Positions 7,375-39,272 of a stretch of DNA of 64,000 nt are shown in pieces. This stretch comes from Nitrospiraceae bacterium (GTDB lineage: Bacteria; Nitrospirota; Nitrospiria; Nitrospirales; Nitrospiraceae). Position 1 is the stretch's first letter. Each line of letters opens with the position of its first letter. The notes below the pieces were generated by a model. It was not told where the DNA came from. It worked only from the letters and a program-made list of their open reading frames with translations, and ran no database searches. A program made the translations under genes and the position numbers. The stretch lies in contig DATFFC010000088.1 of assembly GCA_035250505.1 (NCBI GenBank), positions 953 to 64,952 on the forward strand. Reading direction: 5' to 3'.

Positions 7375-7594
7375 CAGTGGACGACTCTGTGATGGCCTGA
7401 ATGAACAGCGAAGCAACCGGCAGGCCGTGCGGCAATCAGTCGAAAAGTCCCGCTTTTGATGCCCGCGCTATCGTGTCGATGTCGATGAAGCAGCGAGCGA
7501 GAGGAGAAGACGATACCAACGGGGAAGAGTTTGCCATCCTGCGCGGAAAACTTTACCTAGCGGAGAATTGACAGAAGTGCAGTGGGAGGCTGCG

Positions 7595-8398
7595 TCACTG
7601 AATCGGAACGCCGGTCAACGATTCGGAGGATTGCGTAGTGGGGTTGCTCGGTGCTCCATACACCACATAGCTTTCGGTCCTGGCGTGCGTAACCGCGTGT
7701 GTCGCCAGGTCCAACAGTCCTGCCGCATCCGTCGTATCCAAGGACAGGCCGATCCCGATCCGGCTGGTGAGAAAGAGCTCGCGTCCTTCCAGAATGAAGG
7801 GCAATGAGATGGTCGCCTGCATTTTCGTCGCCACAGCCTCGACCTCGGATCTCTCGGCAATGTTCTCTATCAGCGCGGCAAACGAGCGGTCCCCCAGCCG
7901 CGCGACGGTCTCCGTCGTGCGCAGCGCGCTTTTCAACCTGGCCGCCTGGACGCGATAGAGCAAATTACCATGGGGTGCTCCGTGCCGATTTGCTTCCGGA
8001 GCAAAATGGTCCAACTCCACCATGAGAATCGCCACCTGCCGGCCGACTTTCCTGGCACGCAACAGCGCTTGGCCGACGAGCGTCATGAACAGACGTTTCG
8101 TCGGAAGGCCCGTCACTGAATCATACGTGGAGAAAGCCGGAGGCTCAGCACGGACACGATCGGTCCATGGGAACAGTTTGACGCGCTTCAGGAGGAAGAA
8201 CAACCCGGCCGACAAGAGGCCCGCGCTGCCGACCGCCCAAGCCAGGTGATGGGATTTCTCGGAACTGTCGGTGACGTATCGTTCAAGACCCCGGCAGGCC
8301 TGCAGCATCGCCATTGCGCGGCCGGGCCAGATCCATGCGGAGCGAGAGGGCACCTGGGGATCGGACTCATGCTCATCGGGACGGCGTGATCGTGACAT
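7595..8398 (-). CDS. membrane-anchored degenerate GGDEF-domain protein (active site GDRSF)
   Basis: The GGDEF fold is recognisable (DSVTGLPTKRLF ... ILMVELDHF ... VARLGDRSFAALI ... TSRIGIGLS). The GGDEF signature is replaced by GDRSF, and the I-site position reads RTTE rather than RxxD. One predicted N-terminal TM helix. The start could be ATG 8398 or TTG 8407. Confidence 0.75.
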   Translation of the reverse strand: MSRSRRPDEHESDPQVPSRSAWIWPGRAMAMLQACRGLERYVTDSSEKSHHLAWAVGSAGLLSAGLFFLLKRVKLFPWTDRVRAEPPAFSTYDSVTGLPTKRLFMTLVGQALLRARKVGRQVAILMVELDHFAPEANRHGAPHGNLLYRVQAARLKSALRTTETVARLGDRSFAALIENIAERSEVEAVATKMQATISLPFILEGRELFLTSRIGIGLSLDTTDAAGLLDLATHAVTHARTESYVVYGAPSNPTTQSSESLTGVPIQ

Positions 8399-8445
8399 CG
8401 TACTCAACGAATGGGGGGATTTCGGAATAGTCCGCTCTCCTCAGA

Positions 8446-8473
8446 GTATCGGCGGGCGATAGCGAAAACTGTA
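8446..8473 (-). promoter_or_regulatory. sigma-28 (FliA)-type promoter upstream of the degenerate GGDEF gene
   Basis: The minus strand reads TACA-GTTTTCGCTATCGCCC-GCCGATAC. It has the same N16 spacing as the flgM promoter and lies about 48 nt upstream of ATG 8398. Confidence 0.6.
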
Positions 8474-8524
8474 GCTAGACTGATTGACACGATAGTCGTT
8501 TTCCGCTGCGAAATAGATCGCTTT

Positions 8525-8578
8525 CGCCAACCTGCTGAACGAAAGCAGCGCGGGTTCGGCTTCAACGAATTGTTAGGT
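8525..8578 (-). repeat. attC-like imperfect palindrome c (3' of the lipoprotein cassette)
   Basis: The minus strand reads ACCTAAC-AATTCGTTGAAGCCG...CGTTCAGCAG-GTTGGCG. It starts 1 nt after the lipoprotein stop codon. Its 5' half is nearly identical to the site at 9601-9660. Confidence 0.5.
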
Positions 8579-8579
8579 G

Positions 8580-8975
8580 TCAACCTTGCGGGGCAGCCAA
8601 GCGTAATGCTTTGGCTTTACCGTCAAGCATGTACCAACAGTTCTTGGTCAGTGCGGATTGCTTTTCAATGTTCACGTCCGTGATTGCATCGGCGCCAAGC
8701 GCGTATGCAGCAAGCTTGAGGTCAAGAAGTACCGCTTGCTCAGCCGGGGCCGTTTCAACGAAACTCCGATGGCAACGACCTGCATCTACCTCACCTAGAA
8801 CTTGCGCGCCACTTGGCGCTACATTCATAACTTTGATGGTCTGTGATGCGGCTCGCTGATCTCCAAGGCTAGCGTAGGACATGTCGTTGCCAACGCGCAT
8901 GTTGGAGCTGTAAGTAGCGCAGCCCGAGAGGCCGGCAACGAGAGCAAGCATGGATGCTTTGAAAACGGAGTTCAT
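8580..8975 (-). CDS. small lipoprotein, RcsF/DUF4156-like (cassette-borne)
   Basis: It has a signal peptide and lipobox (MLALVAGLSGC). The segment LGEVDAGRCHRS...LKLAAYALGADAITDV...KNCWYMLDGKA resembles the RcsF pattern LGEVSGDSC...ASKMKANAVLL...C. The start, ATG 8975, lies 21 nt after a GTTAGGT core site and is preceded by GGGGAGA. Confidence 0.5.
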   Translation of the reverse strand: MNSVFKASMLALVAGLSGCATYSSNMRVGNDMSYASLGDQRAASQTIKVMNVAPSGAQVLGEVDAGRCHRSFVETAPAEQAVLLDLKLAAYALGADAITDVNIEKQSALTKNCWYMLDGKAKALRLAAPQG

Positions 8976-8995
8976 GAATATTCTCCCCTGTTGAC

Positions 8996-9062
8996 ACCTA
9001 ACGACCTTGCGTCTGAGCTGCGACGGGGTCGCCTGCACAGACCGCTTGGACCGCAGTTCATG
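8996..9062 (-). repeat. attC-like imperfect palindrome b (3' of the HNH cassette)
   Basis: On the minus strand it begins at the HNH stop codon (TGAAC...) and ends in GTTAGGT. An internal stem is formed by TCTGTGCAGGCGAC / GTCGCAGCTCAGA. Confidence 0.45.
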
Positions 9063-9576
9063 CCTTCGGCTTTGGAACAGCACCGGAGAGATGCGCCTCA
9101 AGCGTGTGTAGCCAACGCTTCTCGGTCACTGTTAGTTCACGTGACTCGCGCGCCAGCACCACGAACAATGACGAAAGCCCATCCCACCGCGTGGGTTCGC
9201 CATACTTCCCCCTCACTCGATGAGGCGGATTGGCCTCCAGATACTCCACCTTCTCTCGAGCACTCTTGCGTGTGTTGCACTTCCCACACGCTGTCGCGAA
9301 GTTCGAGGGATCGTGCGCACCGCCTCTCGCATACGCGTGAACGTGGTCGACACAAGCACCGAGTTCGTCAAGCAAAGGCGAAGCGTCTCGACGCCAGTTC
9401 GGATGAAAGTAGGCCAATTGCACATCCGGCAGACGAGTGATCACAAACTGTCCCGCGTACTTGAACGCCAAGTGAAAGATGGTTGGGCGGTGGCACAGCG
9501 CGCAGATCCACCCGTCGCGAAAGTAAACAGCCGCCGCCGTCTCGACGGGGATCGCCGGCCTTGGGCTCTTCGGCAT
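9058..9576 (-). CDS. stand-alone HNH endonuclease (cassette-borne)
   Basis: It has the zinc-finger HNH signature: CALC ... CVDHVHAYARGGAHDPSNFATACGKCNTRK. 172 aa. The ATG lies 25 nt after a GTTAGCC core site. Confidence 0.8.
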   Translation of the reverse strand: MPKSPRPAIPVETAAAVYFRDGWICALCHRPTIFHLAFKYAGQFVITRLPDVQLAYFHPNWRRDASPLLDELGACVDHVHAYARGGAHDPSNFATACGKCNTRKSAREKVEYLEANPPHRVRGKYGEPTRWDGLSSLFVVLARESRELTVTEKRWLHTLEAHLSGAVPKPKA

Positions 9577-9600
9577 CTTCAGGTCTCCGGTGACACGTCT

Positions 9601-9660
9601 GGCTAACGTCTGAATTAAGCCGCGCCACGAGTCGACATCGGCTTGAATGAATTGTTAGGC
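9601..9660 (-). repeat. attC-like site a (60 nt)
   Basis: The minus strand reads GCCTAAC-AATTCATTCAAGCCG-ATGTCGACTCGTGGCG-CGGCTTAATTCAGAC-GTTAGCC. The terminal RYYYAAC / GTTRRRY-type cores are complementary, and AAGCCG pairs with CGGCTT. Confidence 0.55.
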
Positions 9661-9725
9661 ATTGGTCGCATTTTCATGCGATGTGCTTGTTTTTAATTTT
9701 GGTGTGCGACATCGCTGTCTCTGAT

Positions 9726-9774
9726 GGCTAACTATTAATTAAATGAGCCGCGACGTAGGCATTCAGCTTAGCGG
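9726..9774 (-). repeat. degenerate attC-like remnant d
   Basis: On the minus strand it ends in ...CGCGGCTCATTTAATTAATA-GTTAGCC, close to the 3' half of site a. The 5' core is degraded (CTAAG rather than CTAAC). Confidence 0.3.
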
Positions 9775-9905
9775 CCTATCCCAATAGTGCCTTGGTCTAC
9801 GATCAAGGAACAATCGGAGACGCCATCCGCACTTACGTACTCTCAAAGAATGCAGATGCCGGTGCATCATTCGCCGCAGTAGAAAGGTCAATGTCGGACA
9901 GGCTC

Positions 9906-10658
9906 CTAGGTTCCCACCGGCTGGAGTCTGGCCTTCAAATGCAGAATAGCCTTGGAGTGGATCTGACAGACGCGGGATTCGGTGACTTTCAGAATCTGTC
10001 CGATCTCCTTCATCGTCAATTCTTCGAAGTAGTACAAGGTCAAGACCAGCCGCTCCTTCTCGGGCAACTCCTGAATGCTCTGGCAGAGGATTTGCCGTTC
10101 CCGGCCATTTACCAGGGACGCCAGCGCATCCGGTTGGCTGGAATCGGTCAAGAAGCCCAACGTTTGATACCCGTCCTGGTCCTTGACGCCCAAATCTTCC
10201 AGGCTCACGACGACCGCGCCGCGTGCGCGGGTCAGGAATTCATCCAACTCATGAAGCGACATTTTCAGTTCCGCCGCCACCTCCTCGTCCGTCGGAGGAC
10301 GGCCGTGCCGATTCAGCAACTCGGAATAGGTCTTCTGCAGCAGCGCAACCCGCTCATGGACCGAGCGCGGGATCCAATCCATGGATCGGATCTCGTCGAG
10401 CATCGCGCCGCGGATGCGAAATTCGGCATAGGTCTTAAATTTGGCCTCGCGTGTCGGGTCATACTTGTCCATCGCGTCCATCAGGCCGATGATGCCGACC
10501 GACACGAGGTCCTCGGCGTCCAAATAGGCCGGCAATCGAAAGGCCAAGCGATGGGCCATGGACCGGATCACATGGGCGAATTCTTGGATAACCCGCTCGC
10601 GGTCGGTGTGGAGAACGTTCTGTGAGGATCGAGACTGTGAGGGATCGGCTCGATTCAT
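9906..10658 (-). CDS. fliA: flagellar RNA polymerase sigma factor sigma-28 FliA
   Basis: Sigma-70 family regions 2-4 are present (DLVSVGIIGLMDAMDKYDP..., TYAEFRIRGAMLDEIR, LTMKEIGQILKVTESRVCQIHSKA). 250 aa. It lies directly after flhG. Confidence 0.9.
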   Translation of the reverse strand: MNRADPSQSRSSQNVLHTDRERVIQEFAHVIRSMAHRLAFRLPAYLDAEDLVSVGIIGLMDAMDKYDPTREAKFKTYAEFRIRGAMLDEIRSMDWIPRSVHERVALLQKTYSELLNRHGRPPTDEEVAAELKMSLHELDEFLTRARGAVVVSLEDLGVKDQDGYQTLGFLTDSSQPDALASLVNGRERQILCQSIQELPEKERLVLTLYYFEELTMKEIGQILKVTESRVCQIHSKAILHLKARLQPVGT

Positions 10659-39196: not shown

Positions 39197-39272
39197 GCTG
39201 GCGTAGCTCAATCGGCAGAGCAGCGGTTTTGTAAACCGCCGGTTGGAGGTTCGATTCCTCTCGCCAGCTCCA
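39197..39272 (+). tRNA. tRNA-Thr (anticodon UGU)
   Basis: A cloverleaf can be drawn by hand. The acceptor stem pairs GCTGGCG with CGCCAGC. The D-arm is TAGCTCAATCGGCAGAGC. The anticodon stem pairs GCGGT with ACCGC around the loop TTTGTAA. The T-arm is GGAGGTTCGATTCCTC. The CCA end is encoded. Confidence 0.85.

Follow-up and report, generated by a model that had tools for sequence, protein, structure and literature searches.

The stretch of Nitrospiraceae DNA analyzed here, 64 kb long and called the window as a whole, contains a run of flagellar genes in which a short array of attC-like sites lies between fliA, coding for sigma-28, and a gene for a GGDEF-domain protein. All array features and flanking genes described below are on the minus strand, where the order is flhA, flhF, flhG, fliA, a spacer, the array, the GGDEF gene, flgF and flgG. 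The host is a Nitrospira, its FliA being 88% identical to that of Nitrospira sp. NOB03 and its FlgG up to 98% identical to proteins of Nitrospira metagenome-assembled genomes. A preliminary description, made from the letters of the window, had proposed an integrase-less array of integron cassettes inserted between fliA and the sigma-28-driven GGDEF gene, and the analysis reported here supports this proposal, which withstood each of the checks suggested along with it. The array is composed of the following features, given in the order in which the minus strand is read (RBS, ribosome-binding site; ORF, open reading frame).

9726-9776, minus strand: site d; a GTTAGCC core only (9732-9726), a 7-mer identical to R' of site a
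9607-9731, minus strand: unit 1, ORF-less and cassette-like; TTAGCC, 65 nt, then attC a as far as its G; a GTTAGCC core on either side
9601-9660, minus strand: attC site a; canonical, 60 nt, Xanthomonadales-like
9002-9606, minus strand: unit 2, the HNH cassette; TTAGCC, RBS, ORF 9576-9058 (Pfam HNH, 7e-9), then site b up to its G
8996-9062, minus strand: site b; attC-like but non-canonical, closing the HNH unit; …GAAC … internal hairpin … GTTAGGT
8531-9001, minus strand: unit 3, the lipoprotein cassette; TTAGGTGTCAAC, RBS, ORF 8975-8580 with the lipobox LSGC, then site c up to its G
8525-8578, minus strand: attC site c; 5' half (R'' ACCTAAC, spacer, L'') intact, centre shortened, L' and R' mutated, ending in GTTGGCG

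The attC-like sites

Site a is a genuine attC. It consists of R'' GCCTAAC, the spacer AATTC, L'' ATT[C]AAGC, L' GCTTAAT, the spacer TCAGAC and R' GTTAGCC; pairing involves 6 of the 7 positions in the R box and all 7 in the L box, with one extrahelical base and spacers of 5 and 6 nt. The total of 60 nt falls in the length range of attCs, about 57-141 nt, and the site carries both the 5' inverse core RYYYAAC and the 3' core GTTRRRY by which attCs are recognized. This canonical geometry is common to 11 of the 14 known attCs that were extracted from class 1 and class 2 integron arrays, and site a shares the arrangement of the R and L boxes and the extrahelical base with the attCs of aadA1, aadA2, aadB, sat2, aac(6')-IIa and fosI. 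In sequence, it is 82-89% identical over 62-68 nt to the aadA, aadB, aac(6')-IIa and fosI sites of clinical integrons, in 3,756 plasmids. Unlike these resistance cassettes, the array does not carry a resistance gene, and the central stem of site a contains five uncompensated substitutions.

Two covariance models were built for the search, both distinct from IntegronFinder's own attC model. R1 describes the R and L boxes of the 14 known attCs and was built on sites trimmed to these boxes, because a full-length MAFFT alignment misaligned the L' boxes; R2 derives from 30 full-length sites, aligned to the model. Known attCs score 20-50 bits with these models, which are skewed toward 60-nt Xanthomonadales-like attCs and miss the known long sites of oxa1, qacG2 and dfrA1. 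Site a reached 45.6 bits with R1 (E 6e-9, the level of the training sites) and 65.5 bits with R2 (E 1e-13), and a sequence-only nhmmer profile of the 60-nt attC family found it with an E of 1.4e-16. The covariance-model check that had been suggested for this region returned, accordingly, one very strong match; nothing else in the window was significant with R1, which also gave zero matches at E<=1 in a control set of 815 kb, made of 80 Nitrospira flagellar loci and 4 contigs with HNH homologs.

The bottom strand of site a, although its R and L boxes pair, folds with a dG of only -8.0 kcal/mol (z -1.4), functional homologs reaching -18 to -34 kcal/mol (z -5 to -8). Against shuffled sequences, the z-scores were -0.9 to -1.4 for site a, about -1.3 for site b and about 0 for sites c and d as they stand. 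The four imperfect palindromes of the preliminary description, whose sequences and coordinates were all exact (site a 9660-9601, b 9062-8996, c 8578-8525), can therefore be retained in part: site a pairs its R and L boxes canonically and has the extrahelical base that was looked for, whereas b, c and d do not pair in this way, and no site beats its shuffles significantly.

Site c shares with site a a 21-nt motif, of which the 64 kb contain exactly 2 copies, versus 0 expected, both at cassette ends. Its 5' half was recognized by nhmmer (E 3e-5, profile positions 2-29 only) and matches about 4,000 plasmid attCs by BLAST. With R2, the site taken in full reaches 10.5 bits (E 4.4); L' pairs at 4 of 7 positions, R' reads GTTGGCG, and the full R''-L''…L'-R' architecture is not present. 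Since homologous cassettes elsewhere keep intact attCs, of 58-112 nt, site c is a decayed attC. A degenerate attC of another locus, at positions 9320-9374 of L090 (L numbers denote comparison loci; R1 15.3 bits), has a 3' half, GGCTTCGTTCAAATGTTTCG, that resembles the 3' half of site c, TGCTTTCGTTCAGCAGGTTGGCG; the odd 3' half of site c may represent a recurrent variant or decay product, and not random erosion.

In site b the pairing of the R box is limited to GAAC/GTT, around a good internal hairpin. It was not matched by R1, R2 or nhmmer, also when the interval 8400-9950 alone was searched with the models, nor by BLAST against plasmid attCs; because the models miss known long attCs, the negative model results are weak, and they neither establish site b as an attC nor disqualify it. 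The G|TTAGGT of the site is the exact limit of homology with a Novilysobacter cassette described below and a proven crossover point, and the site is conserved in the contigs L093 and L178 despite an internal insertion of about 85 nt; at best, it is an atypical attC. The insertion itself (L093 1132-1216) indicates that the variable part of an end of this type tolerates large indels.

Site d had been regarded as a degraded attC copy, a claim that is not supported for the site as a whole: nhmmer gave an E of 12 on the wrong strand, R1 2.5 bits and R2 no match, none of them above chance, the z-score of the fold is about -0.3 to -1.3, and only the GTTAGCC core is convincing. It is probably the left recombination junction, formed by the target G and the TTAGCC of unit 1, or alternatively a badly decayed attC.

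A simpler account would be that these palindromes are repetitive extragenic palindromic (REP) or other intergenic repeats of the host, or terminators, next to two ordinary accessory genes. The failure of the attC models to detect sites b, c and d would agree with it, as would the lack of any hairpin stabler than shuffled sequences. Against it stand the two copies of the shared motif in 64 kb, the absence of model matches in 815 kb of nearly exclusively Nitrospira DNA, the identity of site a with clinical-integron attCs, and the recurrence of the lipoprotein unit, with the same boundaries, in a complete integron. A genome-wide REP family, which the preliminary description had named as a possible objection, is effectively refuted, and we consider this account extremely improbable.

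The cassette units and their homologs

The two ORFs are arranged as had been claimed. The HNH ORF runs from an ATG at 9576, 24 nt past the core of site a, to a TGA overlapping the beginning of site b; the ATG of the lipoprotein ORF, at 8975, lies 20 nt past the core of site b, and its TGA ends 1 nt before site c. Both have an RBS and no promoter of their own, as previously noticed; indeed, scans of the region for promoters and terminators gave nothing above chance, and no sigma-70-like promoter precedes the cassettes. Both are real genes under purifying selection, because dN/dS (the ratio of nonsynonymous to synonymous substitution rates) is 0.16 for HNH and 0.10 for the lipoprotein. Their GC content at third codon positions (GC3) is 0.54 and 0.66, compared to 0.71-0.77 in the flanking flagellar genes, and is foreign to the locus.

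The closest homolog of the lipoprotein (89% identity at the aminoacid level, about 84% in DNA) is the sixth cassette of a complete integron of Novilysobacter arseniciresistens (AVPT01000007, L090). The divergent integrase of this integron scores 495 bits with TIGR02249 (cut-off 265) and is 55% identical to IntI1; the array contains co-oriented small ORFs between at least 8 R1-positive attCs. Homology between the window and L090 starts exactly at G|TTAGGTGTCAAC, in R' of site b, proceeds through the ORF and ends after ACCTAACAATTCGTT.AAGCCGAA.CCGC of site c; upstream, the attCs of the two loci are unrelated. The same cassette family is found in L179/L181, L180 and L182, with different neighbours and an intact 58-60-nt attC each time, and the break in L090, L179, L180 and L182 falls exactly at G|TTAGGT or G|TTAGAT. 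In the window, a perfect inverted repeat of 13 nt joins the start and the end of the unit and corresponds to the R''/R' pair that the circular cassette would re-form; this pair is ACATCTAAC/GTTAGATGT in L179/L180 versus ACACCTAAC/GTTAGGTGT, a compensatory double change that keeps complementarity.

Searches of Pfam, NCBIfam and PADLOC for a function of the lipoprotein gave sub-threshold matches only (DUF4156, 0.013; YbjQ_1, 0.11). Another homolog, with 84% identity (L091/L092, 8001-8417), adjoins a type I restriction-modification system and a DncV/patatin pair resembling a cyclic oligonucleotide-based antiphage signalling system (CBASS) and is not part of a cassette array; R1 found no attC beside it in L091, the one contig of the two that was scanned.

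The DNA of the HNH unit is 95% identical to the JGI contigs L093 and L178. Homology starts exactly at GTTA(G/T)CC, in R' of site a, its other limit being …CGCAAG|TT within site b; in these contigs the unit is isolated among chromosomal genes, for a Na/H exchanger, a BNR/sortilin protein and a DUF1579 protein. Both the HNH and the lipoprotein unit are thus discrete units of the kind expected of gene cassettes, with a promoterless ORF, varied contexts and G|TT limits; on these comparisons the lipoprotein unit is a genuine cassette, and the HNH unit behaves alike. Unit 1 has no ORF, and no homolog of it was present among the comparison loci that were fetched. Overall, the units belong to the Xanthomonadales-like type, and their limits are IntI crossover points, G|TT.

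Distant homologs of the HNH protein (55-66% identity; L094, L095, L096) adjoin genes for Mrr_cat, HNH_2, helicase, DUF499 and PIN proteins. These defence-island-like surroundings hint at a defence or addiction role of the cassette cargo. That the HNH family is generally cassette-borne was considered and rejected, as the distant homologs lie in such contexts and not in arrays.

The fliA locus and the arrival of the block

The block is flanked by the following features of the flagellar cluster.

9906-10658, minus strand: fliA (sigma-28; Pfam Sigma70 r2/r3/r4), which closes the flhA-flhF-flhG-fliA run, upstream of the insert
9733-9905, minus strand: spacer of 173 nt, from the fliA stop to the first GTTAGCC core; its start resembles other Nitrospira DNA
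8447-8473, minus strand: sigma-28-type promoter of the GGDEF gene, TACAGTTT-N12-GCCGATA, intact just downstream of the insert
7595-8407, minus strand: GGDEF-domain gene (Pfam GGDEF, 6e-22), a native neighbour of fliA

The impression that the segment is less GC-rich than its flanks was confirmed, the GC content being 0.551 for 8474-9905 and 0.596 elsewhere, within the bottom 5.6% of equal-sized windows; GC3, as said, is also lower. The related loci examined were 160, 80 of them from species-level Nitrospira genomes and 80 from metagenome contigs with fliA, and the HNH and lipoprotein ORFs were found in none of them, as had been expected. In these relatives fliA is directly followed by the GGDEF gene, as in about half of the loci, or by flgF. 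L005, the nearest relative, has 80 nt between fliA and the GGDEF gene, and in them the same sigma-28-type promoter, whose motif and spacing recur 17 nt past the fliA stop.

Since the source is metagenomic, and attC repeats are reported to confuse assemblers (PMC9024848), the junctions might have arisen as an assembly chimera of Nitrospira flagellar DNA and foreign integron DNA. Three separately assembled samples (ERZ27257131, ERZ27257132 and ERZ27257135) agree at 100% identity over the array, with the same junctions and native flagellar genes on both sides, which argues against a chimera; such an artifact, moreover, would not put the GGDEF promoter and its gene back in their proper order. This explanation is hardly credible.

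Next to fliA, the spacer is 91% identical over 44 nt to the DNA past the flhG stop in the Nitrospira contig L151; therefore, the 173-nt spacer is probably native Nitrospira DNA. This leaves little room for the classical origin of such arrays, namely that the block is what remains of a chromosomal integron, complete at first, whose intI, attI and cassette promoter Pc were later deleted. Clusters of this kind were indeed first explained as degraded integrons (PMC4889954; PMC9024848), decay of the sites is apparent, and site d could be what remains of a further attC or of attI. However, the first core follows the fliA stop after only 173 nt; tblastn with IntI1 and the L090 IntI found no IntI-like sequence in the 64-kb window (best E 0.24), in agreement with the absence of intI noticed before; and neither an IntI homolog nor a sigma-70-like promoter, as expected of a complete integron, accompanies the cores. 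The fliA-GGDEF/flgF synteny is without an integron in the 160 relatives, and the deletion model requires that an integrase once resided inside a conserved flagellar operon. We consider such an origin improbable.

A similarity to L151 extends over about 65 nt from the fliA stop (window 9845-9910, CCTAGGAGCCTGTCCGACATTGACC…GCGGCGAATGA, then a hairpin), with about 90% identity to L151 1004-1070. In this distant contig, whose FliA is 69% identical, the stretch heads a flhG-fliA spacer of about 220 nt, which the window does not have. It occurs in the window and in L151, and in none of the other loci among the 177 compared, and could be a small mobile or terminator module.

Taken as a whole, the evidence makes it very probable that a block of about 1.2 kb (9731-8531), formed by three cassette units, was horizontally acquired and inserted in the fliA-GGDEF spacer of one Nitrospira lineage. 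As for the way of insertion, in the most economical reading the donor molecule would have been a circle of three units, derived from excision between two non-adjacent attCs of an array, or the units might have entered stepwise; an integrase acting in trans would then have joined an attC to a non-att G|TT in the native spacer, by the "attG" route. Insertion at attG has been shown experimentally, and small arrays without integrase have been proposed to arise so (Loot et al., bioRxiv 10.1101/2022.09.11.507474). The left junction would be a bare G|TTAGCC, i.e., site d, and the right one attC c followed by target DNA, and the observed junctions fit this expectation; the pre-insertion (empty) allele would join …TTAATTAATAG|TTGGCGAAAG…. 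For this integration step taken by itself, we see the chances as evenly balanced.

The outer junctions could also be explained by arrival in the absence of an integrase, through homologous or illegitimate recombination of a fragment carrying a partial array, in which case the G|TT limits would reflect the history of the donor. Indeed, the outer junctions lack an empty-site comparison, and degradation has gone too far in site d and at the 3' end of site c for a clean crossover to be recognized. The foreign DNA, however, ends on the left with a GTTAGCC core that matches R' of site a, and on the right with G|TT at the R' position of site c, while no transposase, insertion sequence end or direct repeat flanks the block. 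Hence we hold this alternative to be quite improbable.

Insertion of a horizontally acquired cassette block has itself some points against it. Of the four sites, one (a) is significant with the attC models built here; a close relative with an empty site was not found, the best FliA identities being 88% in the GTDB scan and 83% in the metagenome scan, and the spacers do not align; the junction does not agree with CRGM, the flank motif published for attG, since GAAA is read at positions 6-9 after the cut; and a weak terminator-like hairpin with a T-run (9868-9855), not above chance, lies between fliA and the cassettes.

Once inserted, and without an integrase, the sites would no longer have been maintained and would have eroded, with loss of the central stem in site a and of the 3' half in site c, site b being atypical. 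The weak folding of site a and the decay of site c give the array a fossilised look. The promoterless ORFs have the same orientation as fliA and, judging from their arrangement, would be expressed only via read-through of the fliA transcript past the weak hairpin. The native regulon is probably undisturbed, because the GGDEF promoter is intact. A more specific scenario can be proposed, although we regard it as rather unlikely in all its parts: a cross-phylum attG event brought a Xanthomonadales-type multi-cassette circle into the flagellar regulon of a nitrite-oxidising Nitrospira, where HNH and lipoprotein are co-transcribed with fliA. If true, it would offer a natural, datable example, with the expression of the two genes tied to motility.

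Comparison with known integrase-less arrays

A CALIN is a group of clustered attC sites that has no integron-integrase (Cury et al. 2016, PMC4889954; IntegronFinder 2.0, PMC9024848), defined by at least 2 attCs, less than 4 kb apart and in one orientation, with no integron-integrase nearby. CALINs are common, with 2,961 in RefSeq, mostly small, and two in Ca. Nitrospira inopinata (PMC9024848). The array resembles them for its co-oriented promoterless cassettes with attCs, the absence of IntI within 4 kb (none in 64 kb) and its small size, which is the commonest class. Within 1.14 kb it holds one model-significant attC (a), one decayed (c) and one atypical (b); unlike a typical CALIN, it may fail a strict two-attC rule, and it is located inside a flagellar gene cluster, which is unusual but not significant in principle. 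The name CALIN, used for it in the preliminary description, can then be kept as far as integrase-less inserted cassettes are concerned; given one model-significant attC, the block may be described either as a degenerate, partly fossilised CALIN or, on a strict count of model-positive sites, as similar to a SALIN (a lone attC without an integron-integrase).

As in SALINs and attG insertions, the block is set, through G|TT joins, into a spacer of the ordinary chromosome, where a host transcription unit upstream could drive the cassettes, and the HNH unit is also found as a single isolated copy in another genome (L093/L178). Unlike those cases, there are three units and not one, the CRGM motif is missing from the right flank, and there is no empty site or integrase to demonstrate the event. 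With the sedentary integron of Xanthomonadales (L090) it shares the 60-nt attC family, the closest lipoprotein cassette and an identical 5' boundary; the Nitrospira block has no platform and its sites are eroded, while L090 has intI, an attI region and at least 8 intact, well-folding attCs.

The array is thus a known kind of element in an unusual host, and it reveals no new mechanism. In a survey of complete genomes, 99.4% of the "Xanthomonadales-like" attC clade was found in Xanthomonadales chromosomes (Ghaly et al., PMC8352920); the present locus indicates that cassettes of this type can become fixed in the core chromosome of another phylum, the Nitrospirota, without an integron platform. 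Besides this crossing of phyla, the locus is of interest for boundaries that are exact to the nucleotide and for orphan attCs that are visibly eroding; exact cassette boundaries together with eroding sites bear on the origin of small CALINs and SALINs, by insertion or by integron decay, as well as on the decay rate of orphan attCs and the domestication of cassette cargo.

A few minor observations concern the rest of the window. Rfam, scanned with the region as well as with the whole window, returned no match related to attC; this was treated as uninformative, since Rfam is not known to hold an attC family. A tRNA-Thr (TGT), at 39197-39272, is the sole Rfam or ARAGORN match across the 64 kb. 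In L001, L002 and L003, which belong to the same strain, a 208-nt insert resembling a miniature inverted-repeat transposable element (MITE) is found at 9103-9310, between the GGDEF gene and flgF, with perfect terminal inverted repeats of 16 bp (CCCACATTATTCATGA) and CTAG on both sides; one copy of the terminal repeat is also present in L110. In the window, positions 7557-7560 represent the empty CTAG site of this insert, just upstream of the TAAAGTTT box.

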